64,000 nt of DNA, from contig JBGPJZ010000001.1 of the NCBI GenBank assembly GCA_041485695.1, positions 44,697-108,696 on the forward strand. The letters run 5' to 3'. A model generated the notes under the pieces. It worked only from the letters and a program-made list of their open reading frames with translations. It did not search any database and was not told the origin of the DNA. This document shows, piece after piece, positions 6,191 through 55,508 of this stretch. The translations under genes were made by a program, and so were the position numbers. How positions within the stretch are numbered: position 1 is the stretch's first letter; each line of letters opens with the position of its first letter. The stretch comes from Minisyncoccia bacterium. Lineage in GTDB: Bacteria; Patescibacteriota; Minisyncoccia; Phycocordibacterales; Phycocordibacteraceae.

Positions 6191-9100
6191 ATGGCCTACT
6201 CACCCCGCAAATTGACCGGACAGCGCGATACCTGGAACGCGCTCCGCCTTGGCGTTGCCTCGCCCGAGCGCATCCTCGAATGGTCGCACGGCGAAATCAC
6301 GAAGCCCGAGACCATCAATTACCGTACGCAACGGAGCGAAAAGCACGGCCTCTTTGATGAAAAGATCTTCGGCCCGGAGAAGGACTACGAATGCTACTGC
6401 GGCAAGTACAAGGGTATCCGCTACAAAGGCATCGTTTGCGACAAGTGCGGTGTCGAGATCACCCGCTCCATCGTGCGCCGCGAGCGTATGGGCCATATCG
6501 AGCTCTGCAGCCCCGTTGCGCACATCTGGTTCTTGCGCTCAGTGCCTTCGCGCATGGCGCTTCTCCTTGGCGCCTCGGCTGCGGACATAGAGAAGGTCGT
6601 CTACTTCGCGGGCTATATCGTGACCAAGGTCAATGATGACGGCAAAAAGCGCCTCCTCTCCGAGCTTGAGAGCGAGTACAAGACGAAATATAAGTCTCAA
6701 AACGACGACAAAGAACGTGATGCTTTGAAAGAACGCATGACCGTCGCTAAGGCCGAGATTGAAGGTCTCGCGGTCGGCCGTGTCTTGGACGAGCTTGAAT
6801 ACCACCGCTTCTCGGTGAAGTACGGCGGCCTCTTCGAGGCGCGTATCGGTGCTGAAGCGATTTATGACATTTTCCGCTCTATCGACCTCAAAGAGCTCGA
6901 AAAAATGCTCCTTGCCAAGTATCAGAAGGCAGGTGCCGCAGAGCGAGAAAAACTCGCGAAGCGCCTCTCGCTTATCGCGGGAATGCTTTCAGCCGGCGTC
7001 CGCCCGGATTGGATGTTCCTCTCTCGTATCCCCGTCATTCCGCCGGCGCTTCGTCCGATGGTCGCCCTTGAGGGCGGCCGCCATGCGACCAGCGATGTCA
7101 ACGACCTCTATCGCCGTGTCATCAATCGCAATAATCGTTTGAAGAAACTCCTCGATATTCACGCGCCTGAGGTGATTCTTCGCAATGAGAAGCGCATCCT
7201 CCAGGAAGCGGTCGATGCCTTGCTCGACAACTCAATCCGTAAGGGTGGCGCTTCTGCGGGCGCACTGACGCCAGCGCAGCGCCGGCCTCTTAAGTCGCTC
7301 GCGGATTATTTGAAAGGGAAGCAGGGCTACTTCCGCCAGAACCTTCTCGGCAAGCGCGTCGACTATTCGGGCCGTTCGGTCATCGTCGTCGGCCCTGATT
7401 TGGAGCTCGATGAATGCGGTCTCCCTAAGCACATGGCGCTTGAACTCTTCCGACCCTTCGTTATCGCAGGGCTTCTTTCGCGCGAGCTTGCATTTAATAT
7501 TCGCGGCGCCGGCCGCCTTATTGAAGACGGCGTCCCCGAGGTATGGGAGATCCTTGAAGAGGCGATTAAGGGCAAATACGTCTTACTTAACCGCGCTCCG
7601 ACCCTCCACCGCCAGGGTATCCAGGCATTTCGCCCGCGGCTTATCGAGGGTGATGCTATCCAGCTCCACCCGCTTGTTTGCAACGCCTTCAATGCGGACT
7701 TCGACGGTGACCAGATGGCCGTCCACGTTCCCCTTTCAGAGGAGGCGCAGTGGGAGGCGGCGAATGTGATGAGTGCGAACAAGAACATCTTGAAGCCTGG
7801 CTCGGGCGATATGATCGTGCTCACCGGGAAGCCTCTGGACATCGTCCTTGGCGTGTACTGGCTTACGCGAGAAATGAAAAAGGCGAAGGGCGAAGGCGAG
7901 CACTTCACGTCACCGAACGCAGCCATCCTCGCCTATGAATACAATGGCGTTGATCTCCGCGCCCTGATTAATGTCATGCCGACGACCGACAAAGCGAAGT
8001 ACGCGCACTTCGACGGCAAGCCGTTCCAAACGACCGTCGGTAGGCTCCTCTTCAACACCGTCTTGCCTTCGGATTACCCGTTCATAAACGACACCATCAC
8101 GAAGAAGGTTCTCTCGCGTATCGTGAATGACTGCGCGACCCGCTATGGGCTCGATCGTGTCCCGTCAATCGTTAATAAAGTGAAGCGCTTCGGTTTCGAG
8201 TATGCGACCAAGTCAGGTGTTTCGTGGAGCCTCGACGACGTCTCGGTACCCAAAGGCAAGGGAAAGATCATCGATACGGCGCGCGAAAAGGTCTCGCATA
8301 TCGAGGGAGATTACCGAAACGGGCTCCTCTCTGCCGATGAGAAGCGCCGCATGGCCATCGAGATATGGCAGGGCGCCAAACAGGAGGTTGAAAAACTCGT
8401 TGCAGAGGAGCTCGACCCCTTGGGCTCGGTCGCCGATATGGTGACCTCGGGAGCGCGTGGCTCAATGGGCAACCTTACGCAAATGGCCGGTATGAAAGGC
8501 CTTATCCAGAACACGCAAGGCGAGACTATCGAAGTGCCCATCATCTCTTCGATGTCCGAAGGGCTTAACCCCGTTGAATACTTTATGAGTACGCACGGCG
8601 CGCGAAAAGGCCTCACCGACACCGCTCTTGGTACGGCAAAAGCGGGGTATCTCACGCGCCGTCTCTTCGACGTCGCACAAGACTCGATTATCACTGAAGA
8701 GGATTGCAAGACGAAGCGCGGCGTCGCTATCCGCCGCGTCTCGGCCTCGGGCATCGAGATCGATTACGCTGAAACCTTGACCGGCCGCGTGCTTTCTGAA
8801 GACGCAAAGGACGCGCTCGGCGAGACGATTTTCAAGAAGGGTCACTATATCTCTCCCGATGATGGCAAGAAAATCGCAGCGGGAAGCGTCGAATCAGTCG
8901 CCGTACGGAGCGCCATGGGTTGCGAGACCCGCTATGGCGTCTGCCAGAAATGCTACGGCATGGACCTGACGACAAGGAGGATGGTCGACCTCGGCGAGGC
9001 CGTCGGTACCGTCGCAGCGCAAGCCATCGGCGAACCGGGCACTCAGCTTACGATGCGCACCTTTCATGCGGGCGGCGTGGCTTCGATAGGCGGGGACATC

Positions 9101-36192: not shown

Positions 36193-38157
36193 CTACCAAA
36201 TCTTGGCGCGGGCTTTGGGGGCGCGATAGAGCTTGTCTCCTTTTTTCACCCCAAACGCTTCGTAGAACTCGGTCAGATTAGAAAGCGGGCCGTTAACACG
36301 AAAAATGTCAGGCGAATGCGGGTCGGTAAGAATCGAGGTTTTTAAATGTTCAGGCCGTGCAATCTCACGCCAATCCTGTGCCTTAGCAAGGAAGAAGCGT
36401 TGTTCGGGAGCAAAGCCGTCAATTATTTTGCGCCCTGTCTTTTTAAGATGCCGCTCATATGCAGCGAAGGCAATCGCGTCCCCGCCAAGATCCGCAATAT
36501 TTTCGCCAAGCGTGAGTTTACCGTTGACCTTCACTCCATGCAGCTCGTACTGATTGAACTGTCGTTCAACCACGCGAGCCTTTTTCTCAAATCGGGCGCG
36601 GTCAAGCGATGTCCACCAGCTTTTTAAGTTGCCTTTTTCATCGAACTTCGAGCCCTGGTCGTCGAAGCCGTGCGTAATCTCGTGGCCGATTACAGCGCCG
36701 ATGGCACCATAGTTCACTGCGTCGTCGGCGCTTGCGTCGAAAAAAGGATGCTGGAGAATCGCAGCAGGAAAGACTATCTCGTTCGTACCCTGGTTATAGT
36801 ACGCATTGACCGTTTGCGGCGTCATAAACCACTCCTCGCGGTCAACTGGCTTACCGAGCTTGTGCATCTGGCGCGCGTGCTCATGGAGCGAGGCGCGCAT
36901 CACATTCCCGAAATAATCGGCGGGGTCGATGACGAGTCTTCGGTAACTCTTCCAGCGTTTTGGGTACCCGATCTTGCGGACCATGGTCTTTAGTTTCTTC
37001 TGCGCGCGTTTTTTCGTTGCCGGGCTCATCCAGTCAAGGACCTTGATGCGTTCGGCATACACGGCAAACAAGTCGCTGATGAGAGCGTCCATTTTTCGCT
37101 TTGCTTCGTGGGTGAAATATTTTTCTACATAAATCTGCCCGAGCGATTCACCAACCGTGCCGTTAACTGTCGAGAGTGCTCGGCGCCATAAAGGGCGCAT
37201 CTTTTTAGCTCCCGAAAGTACCTTGCCGTAAAAATCGAAATTAGCTTGCACAAATCGTTGCGAAAGCAGGCCCGCCGTCCCTATGAAAAGATGCCATTCA
37301 AGATACACTCGCCAGTCTTCCATCGAGGTTTGCTTAAGGAGAGAGCTCACCGCTTTCAAAAAGCCGGGCTGCATAACCAATATCTTGGTCGGCGTGCGCG
37401 CCCCGATAGCTTTCAAATATGAACGCCAGTTGACGACCGGCGACAACTTCTGAAGAGCCTTTACCGAGAGTTTATGGTAGGTCTTGTGCGGGTCACGCGT
37501 GTCCTCTTTGCGCATTGAGGCCGTTGCCAGCGTTTTTTCAATCGCGAAAATAATCGCTGCATTCCGCCTCGCATCTTGCGGTGCCCAGCCGAAGAGCTTC
37601 AGCATCCTTTCAATATGTGCGAGATACGCAGTACGAACTCTAACCTGTTCGGGGTTATTGAGAAGATAATAGTCGCGCTCGGGCACGCCGAGACCGTCTT
37701 GGTAGAGATGCAAGAGATATGTCTCGCTGTTTTTTGCATCTTGATCAATTGCTGCACCCCACAAAACACCGATACCAAGCTTGTGAAATTTAGCGACGAG
37801 GCGAAGCACATCCTCTTTTGTTTTAAGCTTCTTAATCTTTGTGCGGAAGCGTTCAAGCGGCTTCGCGCCGAGTGCATTACGCGCCTTCATATCCATGCCC
37901 GAGCGATACAAGTCACCAACAAGTTGCGGGGCAGTGCCTTTCATAAGGTGCTTGGCCTTGAGCAAGCCGTTGACGATTTCTCTCAGCTTCTTTTGCGTTT
38001 CAGTTTGGAGGATTTGGAAACTGCCCCAGCGTGACTCATGAGGAGGGATTTTCTCTCTTTTAATCCACCCCCCGTTCGCGTAATGAAAAAAGTCGTCCTG
38101 CGGGCGGACGCGCTTATCTATGTCTCGCGTATCAAATCCCCACCCTTTTTTCTTCAT
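36193..38157 (-). CDS. M13-family zinc metalloendopeptidase (PepO/neprilysin-like)
   Basis: HEITHGFDDQG (HExxH) and ENIADLGG motifs. Confidence 0.9.
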   Translation of the reverse strand: MKKKGWGFDTRDIDKRVRPQDDFFHYANGGWIKREKIPPHESRWGSFQILQTETQKKLREIVNGLLKAKHLMKGTAPQLVGDLYRSGMDMKARNALGAKPLERFRTKIKKLKTKEDVLRLVAKFHKLGIGVLWGAAIDQDAKNSETYLLHLYQDGLGVPERDYYLLNNPEQVRVRTAYLAHIERMLKLFGWAPQDARRNAAIIFAIEKTLATASMRKEDTRDPHKTYHKLSVKALQKLSPVVNWRSYLKAIGARTPTKILVMQPGFLKAVSSLLKQTSMEDWRVYLEWHLFIGTAGLLSQRFVQANFDFYGKVLSGAKKMRPLWRRALSTVNGTVGESLGQIYVEKYFTHEAKRKMDALISDLFAVYAERIKVLDWMSPATKKRAQKKLKTMVRKIGYPKRWKSYRRLVIDPADYFGNVMRASLHEHARQMHKLGKPVDREEWFMTPQTVNAYYNQGTNEIVFPAAILQHPFFDASADDAVNYGAIGAVIGHEITHGFDDQGSKFDEKGNLKSWWTSLDRARFEKKARVVERQFNQYELHGVKVNGKLTLGENIADLGGDAIAFAAYERHLKKTGRKIIDGFAPEQRFFLAKAQDWREIARPEHLKTSILTDPHSPDIFRVNGPLSNLTEFYEAFGVKKGDKLYRAPKARAKIW

Positions 38158-38203
38158 GCCGCCATACTACACGACCTTCTATTCGCGTGCTATCGTCTCA
38201 TGC

Positions 38204-39943
38204 ATGACGGTGAATGAAGTACGGAAGCGATACTTAGACTTTTTTGAGAAAAGAGGGCACAAGGTAATACCCTCGGCGCCCATCGTGCCCGAGAATGACC
38301 CGACGACGCTTTTCACGTCGTCGGGGATGCAGCCTTTGGTGCCGTATTTGCTCGGGAAGGATCACCCGGAAGGGAAGCGGTTGGTAAACTCGCAACTTTC
38401 ATTTCGCGCGGGCGATATTGAAGAGGTGGGCGATAATCGCCACACCACTTTTTTCGAAATGCTCGGCAACTGGTCGTTGGGTGATTACTTTAAAAAAGAG
38501 CAATTGCCGTGGGTCTATGAATTTTTAACTACCGAACTAAAACTACCGAAAGAGCGGATATGGGTAACGTGCTTTGCAGGTGATGAAAATCTAGGTCTAC
38601 CAAAAGATACGGAGTCGGCAGAGATTTGGAAATCGCTCGGCGTGCCCGAAGACCGCATCCTTTTTTATGACGCCAAGAAGAATTGGTGGAGCCGCTCCGG
38701 CACGCCAGAGAAGATGCCGGCAGGGGAGCCAGGCGGCCCCGATTCTGAAATCTTTTATGACTTCGGCACGCCGCACGACTTTGCGTTTGGCGACGAGTGC
38801 CACCCTAACTGTGATTGCGGGCGTTTTATGGAGATTGGAAACTCGGTGTTTATGGAGTACATCAAAACTGCCGATGGTTTCGATAAGCTTCCGAAACGCA
38901 ATGTCGACTTCGGCGGTGGGCTCGAGCGCCTCACGGCCGCAACCCTCGGTAATCCGGATGTCTTCCTCATTGACGTGTTTGATGCGGCGCGTGAAGAGTT
39001 GGGGCGCCTCTCGGGTAAGCGGTATGAAGAATCCCTTGAAGTTACACGCGTATTCCGAATCATTTTAGATCACACACGTGCGGCTTCGGTGATGTTCGAT
39101 TTCGGCCTTCGACCCTCGAATACAGAACAAGGATACATACTCCGGCGATTAATTCGCCGCGCTATTCGTGAGGCCGACCGGCTCGGTATTACCGAAAATA
39201 TCTTAGCGGAAGTCGCTGGTGCGCACAGGGAAGAATTCCAGCAAGAAGAGGAACGATTCCGTAAAACTCTTACCCAAGGCATGCGGGAGCTCGAGAAGAT
39301 GGATCCGATTGACGCCTTTACTCTTTTTACGACCTACGGATTTCCGGTTGAACTCACGGCTGAAATAGCGGCAGAACGGGGGAAGCCGATCAATTTTGAA
39401 GAGGTAAAGACGCAAATGGAGGAGCATCAAGCGAAAAGCCGTGCAGGGGCGGCGCAAAAGTTCGCGGGGGGATTAGCGGATCATGCAGAGCAGACCATCC
39501 GCTACCACACGGCGCACCATATTTTACTCAAAGCGCTCCAGATGGTGCTCGGACCCGACGTCCACCAGCGGGGGAGCAATATCACAAGCGAACGGCTTCG
39601 CATCGATTTTTCGCATGGGCAAAAAATGACACCCGAACAGATTGCTCAAGTAGAAAGAATCGTGAATGAAAAGATAGCTGAAGCAATTCCCGTCATCCGC
39701 ACTGATATGAAGAAAGAAGAAGCAGAGAAGCTCGGGGCCGAGCACGAGTTCGGTGTTAAGTACCCCGATACTGTTTCAATCTACTCGGTGGGCCCGCTTG
39801 ATAGTGCATTTTCAATAGAATTCTGCGGCGGCCCGCATGTAGAGAATACAAAAGAGTTAGGTGCCGGCGGGAAGAAATTCGAAATCCTGAAAGAAGAGGC
39901 GTCTTCAGCCGGTGTGCGTCGCATCAAAGCGGTGCTCCAATAG
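38204..39943 (+). CDS. alaS: Alanine--tRNA ligase, short form lacking the C-terminal C-Ala domain
   Basis: Class II catalytic core FTSSGMQP. Editing-domain HTAHHIL...CGGPHV. 579 aa vs about 870 canonical. TATCGT 7 nt before the ATG. Confidence 0.85.
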   Translation: MTVNEVRKRYLDFFEKRGHKVIPSAPIVPENDPTTLFTSSGMQPLVPYLLGKDHPEGKRLVNSQLSFRAGDIEEVGDNRHTTFFEMLGNWSLGDYFKKEQLPWVYEFLTTELKLPKERIWVTCFAGDENLGLPKDTESAEIWKSLGVPEDRILFYDAKKNWWSRSGTPEKMPAGEPGGPDSEIFYDFGTPHDFAFGDECHPNCDCGRFMEIGNSVFMEYIKTADGFDKLPKRNVDFGGGLERLTAATLGNPDVFLIDVFDAAREELGRLSGKRYEESLEVTRVFRIILDHTRAASVMFDFGLRPSNTEQGYILRRLIRRAIREADRLGITENILAEVAGAHREEFQQEEERFRKTLTQGMRELEKMDPIDAFTLFTTYGFPVELTAEIAAERGKPINFEEVKTQMEEHQAKSRAGAAQKFAGGLADHAEQTIRYHTAHHILLKALQMVLGPDVHQRGSNITSERLRIDFSHGQKMTPEQIAQVERIVNEKIAEAIPVIRTDMKKEEAEKLGAEHEFGVKYPDTVSIYSVGPLDSAFSIEFCGGPHVENTKELGAGGKKFEILKEEASSAGVRRIKAVLQ

Positions 39944-39958
39944 TTTATACTTAACCCA

Positions 39959-41002
39959 ATGAGTTTCTTTGGGAATCTTTTCGGCACTAAGAAAACAGCC
40001 GAGTCGGTTGCGCTGATTGAAATCGGGCCGGATTCTATCGCGGGCGGCTTTGGATATTTTAAACGTGGCGAGACCCCGCTTATCGTCTATGCGAGCCGTG
40101 CGCCGATACAACAAGCGCAGGGTGAGTCCCCCGTGCAGGCCACGGTGCGCACCTTAGACGTTCTTGGCCAAAGCCTTATTGGCCAAGGGGCTCCTTTACT
40201 CCTCCGGGCAGCCGGGAGCGGGCGCATCGATTCAGTACTGGTCTCGGTCAAAGCTCCGTGGCAAGAGACCACTATCCGCTCTGAAAAGATCGAACGTACG
40301 GAGCGCTTCTTCTTCACTCGCGCGCTCCTCAACACGGCGCTCGTCAAGTCGGCAGAGGCTCCCCAAGGTCGCCTCCTTGCTGACGAAATCGTCGTGGGTA
40401 CCATCCTTGACGGCTACGAAACCAAGAAGGCGATCGGCAAGCGTGCAAGCCGCGTAAGCATCATCGTGCTTTCATCGTTCATCGACGAACAGCTCTCGCT
40501 CGCGATTGCAGAAGGGTTGCGCAAGCTTTTTCATACCACCTCCATCCGGCTTGTCGCGGCTGCGGCGATTCGTTACGAGGCGCTGCAGGCAGTCTTCCCG
40601 CATGAAGATGAATACCTGACCGTCGATATCACTGGCGGCGCCATCGTGACCACGCTCATCCGCCGTGGGCTCCTCTCTGCCGTTGAGCACGCCACGGCAG
40701 ATACCGCTCCAGGCATTCAAGACGCGTGGCTTGGAGCTCTCACAAAAACGCTTGAGGCAATCACGAAGCGCTATCCCTTGCCGCGCAAAGTGCTCCTCCT
40801 TGCTGCCGAGAGCGACCGGGCGGCTTTGAAACAAAAAATCGAGGGGGCTCCGCTCGCATCGCTCCGCCTCTCTGAAGATCCTCCAGCCGTGATTCCCATC
40901 TCGCCCTCGAATCTCACCGACATCGTGCGCATTGCCGAGAATGTCGAGCCAGACCTCGGGTTGGAGCTCATGGCAGCTTTTTGGCGTAAGGTCGAGAGCT
41001 AA
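39959..41002 (+). CDS. Actin-fold ATPase-like protein (FtsA/PilM/MreB superfamily)
   Basis: N-terminal LIEIGPDSIAGGFGYF (phosphate-1-like) and LTVDITGGAIVTT (phosphate-2-like). Confidence 0.4.
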   Translation: MSFFGNLFGTKKTAESVALIEIGPDSIAGGFGYFKRGETPLIVYASRAPIQQAQGESPVQATVRTLDVLGQSLIGQGAPLLLRAAGSGRIDSVLVSVKAPWQETTIRSEKIERTERFFFTRALLNTALVKSAEAPQGRLLADEIVVGTILDGYETKKAIGKRASRVSIIVLSSFIDEQLSLAIAEGLRKLFHTTSIRLVAAAAIRYEALQAVFPHEDEYLTVDITGGAIVTTLIRRGLLSAVEHATADTAPGIQDAWLGALTKTLEAITKRYPLPRKVLLLAAESDRAALKQKIEGAPLASLRLSEDPPAVIPISPSNLTDIVRIAENVEPDLGLELMAAFWRKVES

Positions 41003-45626: not shown

Positions 45627-45983
45627 ATGATGAAAGCCGCCACCCATACGATAGACGCGACGAACCGCACGCTTGGCCGCGTGGCTAGCGAGGCCGCGCA
45701 CGCCTTGCTTGGTAAGCGCTCGGCGAACTACGCCCAGAACGAGGCGCAAGCCATTAAGGTCACCATCGAAAACACCTCAAAGCTCCACCTCCCAGAGCGC
45801 CGTGTCGCGGGCAAGGTCTACACCCGCTACACTGGTTGGCCGGGCGGCTTCTTTAAGATGGGAATGAAGGAGATGATTGAGAAGAAGGGAATCGAAGAGG
45901 TCGTCCGCAAAACGGTCGACGGCATGCTCCCTAGGAACAAGCTCCGCGCGCCTCGGATGAAAAATTTGACTATCCATGCCTAA
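45627..45983 (+). CDS. rplM: 50S ribosomal protein L13
   Basis: MMKAATHTIDATNRTLGRVASEAA aligns to L13 (..WYVVDATGKTLGRLA..). An upstream in-frame ATG at 45546 lies inside the repeat and is considered unlikely. Confidence 0.9.
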   Translation: MMKAATHTIDATNRTLGRVASEAAHALLGKRSANYAQNEAQAIKVTIENTSKLHLPERRVAGKVYTRYTGWPGGFFKMGMKEMIEKKGIEEVVRKTVDGMLPRNKLRAPRMKNLTIHA

Positions 45984-46380
45984 CAAAAACTCTGCATACG
46001 TTATGGCGGTAGGCCGCCGCAAGACTTCAACCGCATCGGTCCGCATGTTGGCGGGCAAAGACCCTACCATCCGCATCAACGGCTTGACTCCTATCGAATA
46101 TTTCAAGACTGCAGACCGCGTTGACGTCGTTGAAGAGGCTTTGAAGAAGGCCGAGAGCGCGAACGTGTACTCTGTCTCGGCGCACGTCGAGGGCGGCGGT
46201 ATCTCGTCGCAGGCTGGCGCTGTGCGCCACGCTATCGCGCGCGGCCTCATCAAGGCAGAGCCGAACCTCCGCGGCACCCTTAAAAAGCTCGGCTTCCTTA
46301 CCCGCGACCCTCGCGCCAAAGAACGCAAGAAACCAGGCCTCAAAAAAGCCCGCAAAGCTCCGCAATGGTCAAAGCGATAG
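45976..46380 (+). CDS. rpsI: 30S ribosomal protein S9
   Basis: GGGISSQAGAVRHAIARGL, and C-terminal ...APQWSKR. Confidence 0.95.
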   Translation: MPNKNSAYVMAVGRRKTSTASVRMLAGKDPTIRINGLTPIEYFKTADRVDVVEEALKKAESANVYSVSAHVEGGGISSQAGAVRHAIARGLIKAEPNLRGTLKKLGFLTRDPRAKERKKPGLKKARKAPQWSKR

Positions 46381-47015
46381 ATTGGAAAGCCGTAAGGATC
46401 CTCACTCTTTTTCTTCCACCCGTTTTATTTACGCTTATTATAAGCTCGCAATTCTCTGCAGAAGAAGTTTTCCCAGTACCCGACAAAACCAATGTGGACG
46501 TAATTTACAGCCCTGGAGAGATTGTAAGTGGACTGATTGCTAACCAAGAACGACACCTCAAATTTCTTAACCCAATAATTAATCCTGAATGGTTCCTTTA
46601 CACCACGCAAGTCATCAATAGTATGAAATTTGCTGTTATTTCAAAAACAGCAACCCCGCCATATGTGGAGGACAAAATCTCGCTGGTGCTTATTGTAAAT
46701 GGGCATCAAACCAAAATAAAGTACGGAAATTACGAAACAGTTTTTGACCAAACTCGAGACGAAATTTTATCAGGACTAACTGGATATATGTTTGTCTTCG
46801 AAGAAAACCACAATCAGCAGTATGCTTCTAATTCTTATATTGAATTCCAACATTCTAGCGACCAGGGGTGGGCATTTGTCAAAATCTATTTATCAGGCCT
46901 TTCACTCTTGATTATATTAATATCTTCCTTTATTGCTTGGGGAGGTTTTATTATTTTTACAAAACCACTTTATCAATTCCTTACTCGTGGAGAGCAGTGG
47001 TATCACAAGCCGTAA
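46365..47015 (+). CDS. Hypothetical 2-TM membrane protein encoded in a sharply AT-rich island (about 38-40% GC)
   Basis: 216-aa ORF overlapping the rpsI 3' end by 16 nt. N- and C-terminal TM helices. Composition contrasts with the about 60% GC surroundings. Confidence 0.55.
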   Translation: MVKAIDWKAVRILTLFLPPVLFTLIISSQFSAEEVFPVPDKTNVDVIYSPGEIVSGLIANQERHLKFLNPIINPEWFLYTTQVINSMKFAVISKTATPPYVEDKISLVLIVNGHQTKIKYGNYETVFDQTRDEILSGLTGYMFVFEENHNQQYASNSYIEFQHSSDQGWAFVKIYLSGLSLLIILISSFIAWGGFIIFTKPLYQFLTRGEQWYHKP

Positions 47016-47166
47016 AGGTTAATGTCATCGATAACGATAGCGCGGAAGGCGTAGTGGGGAGATTGTAACCTAACCGGCAAGAGGGGAGTTGTAGGGGATA
47101 GACTTGGACATTCGTATTTATACGATTTTTCAGACCACGCTACGGCGACCTGTCACACAGGTAATT

Positions 47167-47195
47167 CCCATCACTTTGTTGATGGGTTCTTTATA
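47167..47195 (+). terminator. Hairpin terminator (cccatca-ctttgt-tgatggg + T-rich)
   Basis: 7-bp stem followed by ttctttatatat. Confidence 0.45.
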
Positions 47196-47200
47196 TATAA

Positions 47201-47237
47201 AAAGAAAAAGCCCCGGGCGGTGAAGCGCGGGGCTTTT
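47201..47237 (-). terminator. Rho-independent terminator of the 47615..47256 minus-strand pair
   Basis: gccccgggcgg...cgcggggc hairpin, with tttttcttttt following on the minus strand. Confidence 0.65.
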
Positions 47238-47255
47238 GAGTCGAGGGCGGGACGT

Positions 47256-47603
47256 TCAGGTGCCGGCGAAAAAGCCGGTTTCGCGATAGACAATGTCTCG
47301 AGCGTAACAGAGGCCGGCAGTGCCGCGAATATGGAGTTCGTCAGCACGTTCGACCAACTCTTTGGCATAGCGGTATTTGAAGCCGGACTCCGCTTGTATC
47401 CGAAACCGAAAAACGGTCATCATGAATGCCGCAGTCAATTGATCGAGGTTGTCGATGATGGCAACGGCTTCCTCGATGTCATAGTTGGCAATGATATCGG
47501 CGGCATTCGCGGGGTCGTAAGCATTACGAATTTCGCTCAACAAATCATTCACGTCCCTGCCCTTAACGACAAGGGCTAGGCGGTTTGGTCTTTCTTTGGC
47601 CAT
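47256..47603 (-). CDS. Hypothetical protein (115 aa)
   Basis: Strong SD AAGGAGGG 4 nt upstream of the ATG. No recognised domain. Confidence 0.55.
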   Translation of the reverse strand: MAKERPNRLALVVKGRDVNDLLSEIRNAYDPANAADIIANYDIEEAVAIIDNLDQLTAAFMMTVFRFRIQAESGFKYRYAKELVERADELHIRGTAGLCYARDIVYRETGFFAGT

Positions 47604-47614
47604 TAAACCCTCCT

Positions 47615-47815
47615 TCAGCAGATGGTGATGACGGTGTGGTCATAGATGTGACCATGAGCGTCGAGTTGAAACAAAAGTTTCCCTTTCTGTTTCAGGCTGT
47701 CGAGAATTTCCCAAAGGCCGCGTTTGATCCGAGTACGTTCACGCAATTGACCGTAGGTTACGGTCGCCCCTGCCTCGCAAGGCAAGTTGCGAATCACAAT
47801 GCTTTCGAAGTTCAT
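47615..47815 (-). CDS. Small hypothetical protein (66 aa), possibly winged-helix-like
   Basis: AAGGA about 10 nt upstream. Immediately precedes 47256..47603 (11-nt gap), so it is probably co-transcribed. Confidence 0.4.
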   Translation of the reverse strand: MNFESIVIRNLPCEAGATVTYGQLRERTRIKRGLWEILDSLKQKGKLLFQLDAHGHIYDHTVITIC

Positions 47816-47888
47816 TGACTTTGCGTCCTTGGGCGCATTCAGGTTTCCTGAAAACCAGTGTTACATATGAATGTACTTCTGTCAACTA

Positions 47889-48164
47889 CCACGGGTGGAT
47901 TTTTGATTGCTGAACTCTTTTCTGGCACACTGTCGTGGGATTGAATTGCGCTAGGCTCGAGAGCGCGGTACGCTACAGATGTCGTCCCTTGACATCGGAC
48001 GATCTCCACCTTGGCCCCGCTCCCTCGGCGGGGTCTTTTTAATTTCGGAATACGCTATAATAAAAGCGTCTCCCGTTGTGGGCGACACCCCCAACTTGGC
48101 CCCGCACTTCCCCGCGGGGCCTTTTTTTGACTACCAAACTCTTTTCAGGCATAGTGTAGGGATG
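47889..48164 (+). promoter_or_regulatory. Hairpin-rich grpE leader/regulatory region: three terminator-like stem-loops, a TATAAT box and a duplicated about 30-nt motif
   Basis: Hairpins ccacgggtgg+TTTTT (47889-47905), ccccgc..gcgggg+TCTTTTT (48015-48040) and ggccccgc..gcggggcc+TTTTTTT (48098-48128). TATAAT at 48056-48061. Motif aactcttttcNggcaNaNtgtNgggat at 47913-47943 and at 48137-48164, the latter ending in the grpE ATG. Confidence 0.45.
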
Positions 48165-48680
48165 CAGGACGAGGACGAAGTAAAGATTGAGTCCGAAGAC
48201 CCGGAGGCGGAGGAGAAGGCCGAGAACAAAGTAAAGAAACTCCGCGATGAGATTGAAACCCTGCGTAAAGAGAAGCAGGAGTATCTTGATGGCTGGCAGA
48301 GAGCCAAGGCCGACTACGTGAACGCCCTGAAGCGCTTTGAGGGCGACGTAAAGAATGCCAAGGGGGATGGGGTCAAGAAGGCCGTAGAGGCCCTTTTACC
48401 GGCCTTTGACGCCCTAGAGAGGGCTAAGGAGCATGGGGAAGTCCCAGAGGGTTTTATGGCTATTGCGAAGCAATTAGAGGCTGGTTTTGCCGGTTTAGGC
48501 CTCGAGGCGGTGGGGCAGGTTGGGGAGCGATTCAACCCCGAGCTCCACGAGGCTTTGGGGCAGGACGCGGTGAGCGATTCAAACCAAGACGACGCGATTA
48601 CCGCCGTACTCGAGAAAGGATACCGTTTGGGCGACCAGATTATCCGCCCGGCGAAGGTGCGAGTTGCGCATTATGAGTAA
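48162..48680 (+). CDS. grpE: Nucleotide exchange factor GrpE
   Basis: Coiled-coil plus GrpE domain (DYVNALKRFE...NPELHEA...AITAVLEKGYRLGDQIIRPAKVRV). Start at the internal ATG, because the upstream part of the ORF is translated hairpins. Confidence 0.85.
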   Translation: MQDEDEVKIESEDPEAEEKAENKVKKLRDEIETLRKEKQEYLDGWQRAKADYVNALKRFEGDVKNAKGDGVKKAVEALLPAFDALERAKEHGEVPEGFMAIAKQLEAGFAGLGLEAVGQVGERFNPELHEALGQDAVSDSNQDDAITAVLEKGYRLGDQIIRPAKVRVAHYE

Positions 48681-48700
48681 CGCTCGACTCAACTCCTCGA

Positions 48701-48730
48701 TTGACATGCGGTCTCACTTTTAAATATAAT
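48701..48730 (+). promoter_or_regulatory. Consensus sigma-70-type promoter TTGACA-18-TATAAT ending 8 nt before the dnaK ATG (leaderless-type)
   Basis: Exact hexamers at 48701-48706 and 48725-48730. No SD before the ATG at 48739. Confidence 0.6.
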
Positions 48731-48738
48731 CAGCACCT

Positions 48739-50637
48739 ATGGCAAAAATACTCGGAATAGACTTGGGCACCACGAACTCCGCGATGGCTATCATCGAGGG
48801 CGGCGAGCCGCGCGTGTTGGAGAATGCCGAAGGCGCGCGCACCACACCCTCGATTGTTGCTGTAGGTAAAAACGGCGAACGCATCGTCGGCACTTTGGCG
48901 AAGCGCCAGTCGGTAACGAACCCTTTGAACACGATTTACCAGATCAAGCGCTTCATTGGCCACAATTTTGACGAGCCGGCAGTGCAAAAAGACAAGGAGT
49001 CAGTGCCCTTTGAGATGCGTAAGGCCGAGAATGGCGGCATCGAGGTCAAGATGAGTCAAGGAGATAAAGAAGTGTGGTACCGACCGGAGGAGCTCTCGGC
49101 CATGATTTTGGGCAAGCTTAAGGCCGATGCCGAGGCAAAGCTCGGGGAGAAGATTACCGAGGCAGTCATCACTGTGCCTGCCTACTTTAACGATGCACAG
49201 CGCAATGCGACTAAGGACGCTGGCAAAATTGCTGGCCTTGAAGTGAAGCGCATCATCAACGAGCCCACTGCTGCCGCGCTTGCCTACGGCTTTAATAAAA
49301 AGAAGGAGGAGAAGATAGCGGTCTTCGACTTTGGCGGCGGCACCTTCGACGTCTCTATTCTTGAGGTGGGCGACAACGTGATTGAGGTCAAATCGACCGA
49401 TGGCGATGCGCACTTGGGTGGTAAAGACATTGACCAAAAGATAATCAACTGGCTTGCCGACGAGTTTAAGAAGCAGAGCGGTATCGATGTCCGCGGCGAC
49501 GCGCTCGCGCGCCAGCGCCTCGACGAGGCGGCAGAGAAGGCGAAGATAGAGCTCTCAAGCGCGATGGAGAGCGAGGTCAATATCCCCTTCATCACCTCGA
49601 ACGCCTCGGGCCCCCAGCACCTCCTTATAAAGATGACACGCGCGAAGCTCGAAGAGCTCTCGGCCGAGTTCGTCGACCGCGCGATGGCTATCACCAAGCG
49701 CGCGATGGAGGCCTCACCCTTTAAGGTGGGCGAGATTAATGAAGTCATCTTGGTGGGCGGCCAGACCCGCATGCCAAAGATCCAGCAGGCGGTGAAAGAG
49801 TTCTTCGGCAAGCAGCCGAACATGACGGTGAACCCTGACGAAGTAGTCGCCGTCGGTGCCGCTATCCAAGCCGGCATCTTGCAGGGCGACGTCAAGGATA
49901 TCCTGCTCGTCGACGTCATCCCGCTCTCGCTCTCAATCGAGACCATGGGCGGCGTTGCGACTAAATTAATTGAGCGCAATACCGCCATCCCGACCTCGCG
50001 CTCGCAGACCTTCTCAACGGCTGCCGACAACCAGCCTTCAGTCGAGATACATATCACCCAGGGCGAACGCGCGATGAGCGCCGACAATAAATCCCTCGGG
50101 CGCTTTATGCTGGATGGCATCCCGCCCTCGCCGCGCGGCCTCCCGCAGATCGAGGTCACCTTCGACGTCGACAGTAATGGCATCTTGACCGTGAAAGCGA
50201 AGGAGAAGACGACAAGCAAAGAGCAGTCGATACGCATCGAGGGCTCGACTGGCCTCTCAAAGGCAGATATCGACCGCATGCAAAAAGATGCTGAAGAGCA
50301 CACAGCTGACGACGCGAAGCGCAAAGAGCTCGTTGACGCGCGCAATGTCGGCGAACAGGTAATCTATGCGGCTGAAAAGGCAGTGAAGGAGAACGGCGAG
50401 AAGATTGGCGCTGAACTCGTGAAGGAGGTGGGGGATGCGGTCGAAACCGCGAAAACGGCGGCGAAGAGCGAAGACCCGGCGACCATCAAGGGCGCGACTG
50501 AAAAGCTTTCGCAGACGATGTCAAAAATTGGAGAAGCGATGATGAAGAGTCAGACTCCACCGCCGGCGTCAGACGCCGGCAGCCAAACTCCTCCCCCCGA
50601 ACCTCCTCCGACGGACGCCGAATTTAAAGAAAAATAG
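48739..50637 (+). CDS. dnaK: Chaperone protein DnaK (Hsp70)
   Basis: [16 protein letters not shown], and an EEVD-less C-terminus. Confidence 0.97.
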
Positions 50638-55422: not shown

Positions 55423-55508
55423 GCGTCGGTGGCAGAGTGGTCAATTGCACTTGGCTGTAAACCAAGCGACTTCGGTCTCCGTTGGTTCGAATCCAACCCG
55501 GCGCACCA
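55423..55508 (+). tRNA. tRNA-Tyr (anticodon GTA), long variable arm, encoded 3' CCA
   Basis: Cloverleaf. Acceptor GCGTCGG/CCGGCGC with one G-U pair. Anticodon stem cttgg/ccaag with loop ctGTAaa. Long variable arm. GGTTCGAATCC T-loop. Confidence 0.9.

Follow-up and report, generated by a model that had tools for sequence, protein, structure and literature searches.

A low-GC gene of probable foreign origin joined to the 3' end of rpsI in a Patescibacteria genome

The locus described here extends from the ribosomal protein gene rpsI to the genes grpE and dnaK in a window of 64 kb, the window being the whole stretch of DNA that was analysed. The host belongs to the Paceibacterota (CPR) and is close to Kaiserbacteria; the product of its rpsI is most similar to S9 proteins of Candidatus Kaiserbacteria and other MAGs of Paceibacterota/Patescibacteria, with up to 64-65% identity. 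As grpE starts only at 48162, and dnaK at 48739, an insert of 1.8 kb (46381-48161) lies between rpsI and grpE, and with it comes an open reading frame for 216 aa, here called ORF216. The genes and features of the locus are the following:

45976-46380, plus strand: rpsI, encoding ribosomal protein S9, a native high-GC gene (Pfam Ribosomal_S9, E 8.4e-39)
46365-47015, plus strand: ORF216, encoding a protein of 216 aa with two transmembrane (TM) segments that belongs to a rare, uncharacterised family, probably acquired horizontally (from GC and GC3, relatives and alignment)
46365-46380, plus strand: overlap of 16 nt between rpsI and ORF216, the ATG of ORF216 lying within the Gln-Trp codons of rpsI (CAATGG)
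46383-46451, plus strand: predicted N-terminal TM helix of the ORF216 product, residues 7-29 (AlphaFold; a hydrophobic stretch conserved in the family; N-tail charge +2)
46452-46895, plus strand: predicted extracytoplasmic beta-sandwich, jelly-roll-like, residues 30-177, with the motifs INPEWFLY, K88-x-A90 and P98-x-Y100-x-E102
46896-47000, plus strand: predicted C-terminal TM helix with an aromatic/basic cytoplasmic tail, residues 178-212 (AlphaFold; conserved tail)
47167-47186, plus strand: weak hairpin resembling a terminator, followed by T-rich sequence (terminator scan; dG -10.6, z -2.6)
47206-47237, both strands: strong predicted bidirectional intrinsic terminator (inverted repeat; dG -23.6 on the plus strand, -19.5 on the minus strand)
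47256-47603, minus strand: gene for a protein of 115 aa from a second rare family (GC3 0.595; six relatives at 47-59% identity)
47615-47815, minus strand: ORF of 66 aa upstream of the 115-aa gene, of uncertain coding status (no relatives found)
48162-48680, plus strand: grpE, on the far side of the insert (aligns with grpE of the related loci L001 and L009)

The base composition changes abruptly at the end of rpsI. In windows of 200 bp, GC is 0.59-0.62 over rpsI (46000-46399), passes through 0.48 at 46300-46499, stays at 0.355-0.41 over 46400-47099 and is back at 0.495-0.57 by 47100-47399. Taken together with the coordinates of rpsI and ORF216, this profile places the beginning of the break at the rpsI stop codon, where the original prediction had put it, and an AT-rich island directly after rpsI, in which GC falls from about 0.59 to 0.36-0.41, is what that prediction had described. 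The rest of the 64 kb varies little around a mean GC of about 0.56. The minimum of the whole stretch is the 650-bp window from 46401 (GC 0.383, z -6.5), while the next-lowest value for a window of this size outside the island is 0.486.

ORF216 itself has a GC of 0.381 and a GC3 of 0.361. This is the lowest GC3 of the 46 non-overlapping ORFs with 150 aa or more in the window, ORF216 included, the other 45 having a mean of 0.661 (sd 0.052, minimum 0.539). The break goes beyond an effect of amino acid usage, as the analysis by codon position sets this GC3 of 0.361 against 0.687 in rpsI (GC1 0.59, GC2 0.485) and 0.718 in dnaK. A uniform GC profile, which had been named as the result that would speak against an island, is not seen, the breaks in GC and GC3 both being extreme. 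Atypical composition (GC 0.38 vs 0.56) and codon usage (an outlier in GC3), the first mark of an acquired islet, are thus both found in ORF216, and both are foreign to the host genome.

ORF216 is a real and intact gene. When 1.84 billion cluster representatives were scanned exhaustively with phmmer, nine distant relatives came up, with 25-40% identity and E values from 1e-30 to 2e-4, which align with ORF216 over residues 10-215. The closest is P0002 (E 1e-30, 37% identity), and the others are P0003, P0004, P0005, P0006, P0007, P0009 and P0010; P0008 was disregarded as a repeat protein, and P0011 was added to the family by a profile search. The full-length version of P0005 was recovered in one locus (L089), the only one found by a metagenome scan with a three-sequence alignment. 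The family can be aligned from end to end with both TM segments conserved, and besides the motifs given in the list above, conservation extends to L107, an HSPxLG-like motif and the C-terminal aromatic/basic tail, F(Q/R)F(I/L)xxGxxW(W/Y)xK. The stop-free run of the island is 210 codons long, compared with a maximum of 195 in 2000 first-order Markov simulations.

The family is undescribed and very rare. Among 5.8 billion proteins, a word-indexed search matched only the ORF216 protein itself, and each of the five family members that were checked, the window protein included, is a singleton cluster on one contig. ORF216 matches no family in Pfam, PHROGs, PADLOC or NCBIfam, with PHROGs and PADLOC giving 0 families at E <= 1; a sequence profile search of the PDB gave a chance match only (E 0.43), and a scan of 2.9 million IMG/VR viral contigs with the three-sequence alignment gave no relatives. 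A low-GC ORF of 254 aa that follows rpsI in another locus (L002) was considered as a hidden relative and rejected (hhalign probability 0.4%). The term "orphan", which had been applied to this protein, is therefore too strict, since there is a small set of distant relatives, and "member of a very rare, unannotated family" describes it better.

The overlap of 16 nt with rpsI, also predicted originally, follows from the coordinates, and it has consequences for how ORF216 may be expressed. The ATG at 46365 is the only canonical start upstream of the first TM segment; the next in-frame ATG, GTG or TTG is a GTG at codon 44, which lies past this segment, and at their N-termini the family members line up from M1. 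The C-terminus of S9, QWSKR, is conserved in relatives, where CAATGG or CAGTGG is found at this position, and the ATG of ORF216 exists only because of these conserved Gln-Trp codons. No Shine-Dalgarno sequence was found upstream of the ATG, nor a terminator between rpsI and ORF216. This suggests that ORF216 has no promoter of its own and would be co-transcribed with rplM-rpsI, as no terminator intervenes and terminators are present only at 47167-47237. Translation of ORF216 would depend on termination-reinitiation coupling to rpsI, given that its only usable start is the ATG within the conserved Gln-Trp codons of rpsI.

Two terminator hairpins had been predicted past ORF216 and both exist, the first (47167-47186) being modest and the second (47206-47237) strong and bidirectional. 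The second lies between an A-run and a T-run, and none of 200 shuffled sequences was as stable. A GC-rich hairpin followed by a U-tract, which defines an intrinsic terminator, is thus present on both strands at 47206-47237 and in a weaker form at 47167-47186. The strong hairpin would serve as a common terminator for the rplM-rpsI-ORF216 transcript on the plus strand and for the convergent 115-aa gene on the minus strand.

The position of the gene was compared in 80 related rpsI loci, in which tblastn with ORF216 gave no meaningful match; syntenic orthologues across the lineage, which would have contradicted the original prediction, were thus not found. In 62 of the 80 loci, grpE lies downstream of rpsI on the same strand, separated from it by less than 400 bp in 43 cases and by inserts of 0.7-4 kb in the remaining 19. 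The closest long locus, from a Kaiserbacteria genome with a GC of 0.55 (L001), has the order rplM, rpsI, 87 bp, grpE, dnaK, and a promoter-like TTTCAGGCATAGTG upstream of grpE is conserved between this locus and the window. Absence from relatives and interrupted gene order, the second mark of an acquired islet, are therefore both seen here, with ORF216 in 0 of 80 loci and the order rpsI-grpE-dnaK common among them. From the 19 loci with large inserts and the 43 with short gaps, the rpsI-grpE junction appears to be a recurrent variable slot, and ORF216 appears to occupy it in no other genome of the sample. In GC, the inserts of those 19 loci stay within -0.06 to +0.04 of their own flanks, which makes the deficit of about 0.18 found here (0.38 for the gene, 0.56 for the genome) exceptional. 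As the junction is variable across Paceibacterota, it may be of use as a marker locus when accessory genes are compared at strain level.

The remainder of the insert is of a different kind. Relatives of the 115-aa gene are located on contigs with a GC of 0.53-0.55, where they adjoin rpsF-ssb-rpsR, and this gene, which is likewise real, looks typical of the lineage, lying within the rpsI-grpE insert and probably outside the low-GC acquisition. An assignment of its product to BrxB of the BREX system (PADLOC E 0.002, 15.9 bits) was rejected, and none of the other BREX genes brxA, brxC, pglX, pglZ and brxL is adjacent to it. The 115-aa and 66-aa neighbours were also compared with the DpnI-like proteins that accompany some relatives of ORF216 (see below) and are unlike them. 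Between these two genes and grpE there are two similar hairpins with C-rich loops, and a hairpin-plus-promoter block is present as a diverged duplicate (47886-47933 vs 48098-48157). Rfam gave only sub-threshold, terminator-driven resemblances to sRNAs over 45900-48800. The insert contains no integrase or transposase, the island has no att-like flanking direct repeats beyond short matches of chance size, and no tRNA is adjacent to it, the only tRNA lying at 55423. A classical mobile genomic island, which is marked by an integrase or transposase, by repeats and by a tRNA target, was thus rejected for 46381-48161.

All relatives of ORF216 are on short metagenome contigs with a GC of 33-39%, the genes themselves having 24-33%, and the source samples include Hainich groundwater. 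None of them is preceded by rpsI, and their neighbours vary between loci. A small DpnI-like nuclease is encoded immediately upstream of the relative in two loci (L083 and L084), with DUF3800 downstream in L083, and in L086/L087 the relative directly follows an IS630-type DDE_3 transposase and has a PemK toxin downstream of it. Elsewhere the neighbours are NUDIX, Peptidase_S51 and a weak AAA/zeta-toxin-like protein (L082), a DUF5667 protein (L081), a methyltransferase, TsaD, PrsW and HSP20 (L085), or small membrane proteins and MetK (L089). The relatives of ORF216 sit in low-GC genomes and in unrelated, partly mobile or defence-type neighbourhoods. Relatives in distant genomes, the third mark of an acquired islet, are thus found as far as composition is concerned, on contigs of 33-39% GC and in other gene contexts.

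The family also appears to change quickly. Between L083 and L084 the DpnI-like neighbours are 73% identical and the ORF216 family members 35%, which implies either very fast divergence or replacement of a cassette; rapid evolution of the family is thereby indicated. In the three loci covered by a comparison of GC3 with neighbouring genes, the family member is the lower one (L089: 0.18 vs 0.34-0.53; L085: 0.30 vs 0.40-0.51; L083: 0.17 vs 0.20-0.35), while L082 could not be judged. A gene that is AT-richer than its neighbours is the usual signature of mobile or selfish genes.

A structural model of the ORF216 product was obtained with AlphaFold2 from a nine-sequence alignment (mean pLDDT 82.9, pTM 0.72). 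It consists of a helix at residues 7-29, a mostly beta region at residues 32-176 with 8-9 strands and two short helices, and a second helix at residues 178-212. This agrees with the arrangement proposed originally, in which N- and C-terminal TM helices enclose a domain of about 150 aa, the domain of the model having about 145. The net charge is +2 for each of the two tails and -7 for the middle domain. According to the positive-inside rule, basic tails are cytoplasmic, and these charges point to an N-in/C-in topology in which the beta domain faces outwards. The product would thus insert as an N-in/C-in helical hairpin, with the jelly-roll-like domain of about 145 residues exposed on the cell's exterior. 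The description of this domain as rich in Asn, Tyr and Gln was overstated and is only mildly true (N 6.8%, Y 6.1%, Q 5.4%). The model has no significant structural match, the fold matches in BFVD having TM-scores of at most 0.33. Membership among the cupins was considered and rejected, as conserved His/Glu metal ligands are missing and neither profile nor structural comparison gave a significant match. The product is unlikely to be an enzyme, given that the family has no conserved catalytic-type residues.

Taken together, the island is probably a single gene that reached this genome by horizontal transfer from a low-GC donor; it lies within a 1.8-kb insert that breaks the order rpsI-grpE-dnaK. 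Horizontal acquisition of ORF216 is well supported, and the suggestion of a horizontally acquired or rapidly evolving gene agrees with the break in GC and GC3, the absence from 80 relatives, the homologues on low-GC contigs and the identity of 35% in the family vs 73% in the neighbouring gene. HGT is frequent in groundwater Patescibacteria and takes place mostly between Patescibacteria (PMC12455944). The donor of ORF216 may have been a low-GC genome of Patescibacteria type or a mobile element of such a genome, so that the gene would probably come from the accessory gene pool of the Patescibacteria. No donor sequence with similarity at the DNA level was found, the closest protein being the one with 37% identity. 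ORF216 would have been inserted at the variable rpsI-grpE junction, and the foreign gene would in effect be grafted onto a ribosomal protein operon, hitch-hiking on the expression of rpsI.

Other origins have to be weighed against horizontal acquisition. ORF216 could be a native, lineage-specific gene that evolves fast under weak selection and owes its low GC to AT-biased mutation. Intergenic DNA is AT-shifted too, the short rpsI-grpE spacers of relatives having a GC 0.04-0.2 below that of their flanks; the family diverges quickly, and its low GC3 relative to neighbours even on those low-GC contigs that allow the comparison hints at a gene-specific AT bias. A native origin is nevertheless unlikely, since the gene is absent in all of the 80 related loci, since most relatives have grpE directly after rpsI, since the genomes that carry the homologues all differ greatly in composition and the homologues have other gene contexts there, and since a drop in GC3 of 0.30 in an intact, conserved ORF is hard to reach by drift alone.

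The island might also be what is left of a prophage or another integrated mobile element, with ORF216 encoding a phage membrane protein, for instance one for superinfection exclusion. This was rejected because there are no phage genes and no phage matches: integrase, att-like repeats and tRNA are missing from the island, no PHROG and none of the 2.9 million IMG/VR contigs matches the protein, and the fold matches in BFVD are insignificant. It is improbable, although it would be in keeping with the small size of the membrane protein, with a gene more AT-rich than its host in every locus that allowed a comparison with neighbours, and with the transposase, toxin and nuclease that adjoin relatives.

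An assembly artefact, in which a low-GC fragment of another organism would have been spliced into a metagenome-assembled contig, has to be considered because the contig is of the MAG type and the ORF216 protein is known from one contig only. The contigs of four of the six closest relatives end 94-428 bp after rpsI, which suggests that this place is hard to assemble. The flanks of the insert are however native and in the expected order, with rpsI on one side and grpE-dnaK on the other, so that an artefact would need two chimeric joins within 1.8 kb. In addition, ORF216 needs the ATG within rpsI to encode its conserved N-terminal TM helix and is followed by ordered terminators, which makes such a splice very unlikely. 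The weakest explanation, an ORF that arose by chance in an AT-rich spacer without coding function, would account for the lack of a match in any family database and is effectively refuted by the phmmer relatives of ORF216, which align end to end at E values down to 1e-30, as well as by the confident AlphaFold model and a stop-free run longer than in all 2000 simulations.

With horizontal acquisition as the preferred origin, the function of the gene is the least certain part of the account. The predicted topology, the divergence of the family and the neighbourhoods of its members suggest an accessory envelope protein at the cell surface. Its most likely role would be to exclude phage or foreign DNA or to mask a receptor, with contact to a host or partner as an alternative. 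Of the original designation as a surface or host-interaction gene, the first half is in keeping with the predicted topology and the second is speculation. CPR/Patescibacteria live attached to other cells, and to our knowledge little is known of the proteins on their surface. Conflict or attachment at the cell surface could reasonably be the task of a membrane protein that is transferable, diverges quickly and exposes a beta-sandwich. A more far-reaching idea, which we regard as rather doubtful, is that ORF216 represents a new family of mobile CPR envelope proteins, one that is very rare and evolves fast; its members would be self-standing surface modules, AT-richer than their hosts, that travel with nucleases, toxins and transposases and act by keeping out phage or foreign DNA or through host contact, and one of them, captured behind rpsI, would be expressed from the ribosomal operon. 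At present, ORF216 adds one case to the hypothetical genes that genomes have gained by HGT.

Comparison with known systems places the case in context. The fold class of the ORF216 product is jelly-roll or cupin-like, as in cupins, double-stranded beta-helices and viral jelly-rolls, and the family lacks the conserved His/Glu metal ligands of cupins. Proteins of the Sie2009 and Ltp type, small membrane-anchored phage-exclusion proteins of Gram-positive prophages, show no homology to ORF216 in sequence or structure; ORF216 lies outside a prophage and has two TM helices, and its role is one that we purely infer. The likeness consists in a small accessory protein with a membrane anchor and an external domain, encoded by a fast-evolving gene that is AT-rich relative to its host, and in the location of ORF216 relatives among mobile or defence-type genes in some genomes. 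In its arrangement, ORF216 resembles translationally coupled genes of ribosomal protein operons, as its start lies upstream of the preceding stop just as it does between rplM and rpsI here (ATGCCTAA overlap), and it departs from them in that the downstream gene is foreign and encodes a membrane protein instead of a ribosomal one.

The closest parallel is with genomic islets gained by HGT. The classical criteria for these, atypical GC and codon usage combined with a patchy distribution, reportedly belong to the amelioration framework of Lawrence and Ochman. The locus shares with such islets the sharp break in GC and GC3, the absence from relatives, the broken synteny and a cargo of unknown function. 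It differs in its reduction to one foreign gene of about 0.8 kb, without integrase, tRNA or flanking repeats, and in the junction of this gene to the 3' end of a ribosomal protein gene, from which it would borrow its transcription and translation. The phenomenon as such is therefore familiar, being a small islet of foreign composition and a real, though fairly ordinary, case of HGT.

The order of rpsI followed by grpE-dnaK is kept in 62 of the 80 related Paceibacterota loci, and as 19 of these 62 hold inserts of 0.7-4 kb between rpsI and grpE, the junction has to be regarded as a recurrent variable slot.

Some contigs also stop close to this position, with the end lying just 94-428 bp past the rpsI stop in four of the six closest relatives (L003, L004, L005 and L006) and less than 500 bp past rpsI in 9 of the 80 loci, which suggests that the DNA at the same junction is either strain-variable or hard to assemble. 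In L002, another Patescibacteria genome, a 254-aa ORF with C-terminal TM helices (6433-7197) lies directly 3' of rpsI and has a GC content of 0.34-0.41 vs 0.53 for the locus. It was considered as a relative of the two-TM family of the window and rejected, as hhalign found no relationship.

In the window, the insert carries two ORFs on the minus strand:
47256-47603, minus strand: 115-aa gene, convergent, from another very rare family
47615-47815, minus strand: 66-aa ORF upstream of the 115-aa gene
The 115-aa gene has six relatives with an identity of 47-59%, which adjoin rpsF-ssb-rpsR on contigs of 0.53-0.55 GC, and its BrxB-like match is weak (E 0.002). A search for relatives of the 66-aa ORF found none. 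Three sigma-70-like promoter matches at 46550-46918 all fall within the AT-rich ORF and are probably by-products of its composition. A milder GC dip of about 3 kb is seen elsewhere (37000-40000; 0.505-0.518 per kb vs about 0.56-0.59), with two of the lower-GC3 ORFs:
36193-38157, minus strand: GC3 0.587
38120-39943, plus strand: GC3 0.568

Just 5' of grpE lies a tandem pair of terminator-like hairpins with C-rich loops (48013-48035 and 48098-48121; dG -17.4 and -19.6), both of which share the lead CCAMCTTGGCCCCGC. The mechanical ORF list runs grpE through both hairpins (47979-48680) with 61 extra 5' codons, while alignment with relatives places the real start at ATG 48162. The block of hairpin and grpE promoter (48098-48157) is present a second time 224 nt upstream (47886-47933), the copies having diverged to 79% over 34 nt. 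The duplicate block and tandem hairpins could be a small RNA, for which Rfam gave sub-threshold sRNA resemblances only, or a scar from insertion events.

Elsewhere, on low-GC metagenome contigs, the two-TM family keeps other company. A DpnI-like small protein (PF06044) is encoded directly upstream of the family member in L083 (263-1338) and L084 (88-1162); the nucleases are 73% identical, whereas the membrane proteins share only 35%. In L086 (2-1257) and L087 (3-1485), an IS630-type DDE_3 transposase is followed after one base by P0010, a 170-aa family member without the first TM helix, and then by a PemK toxin gene.
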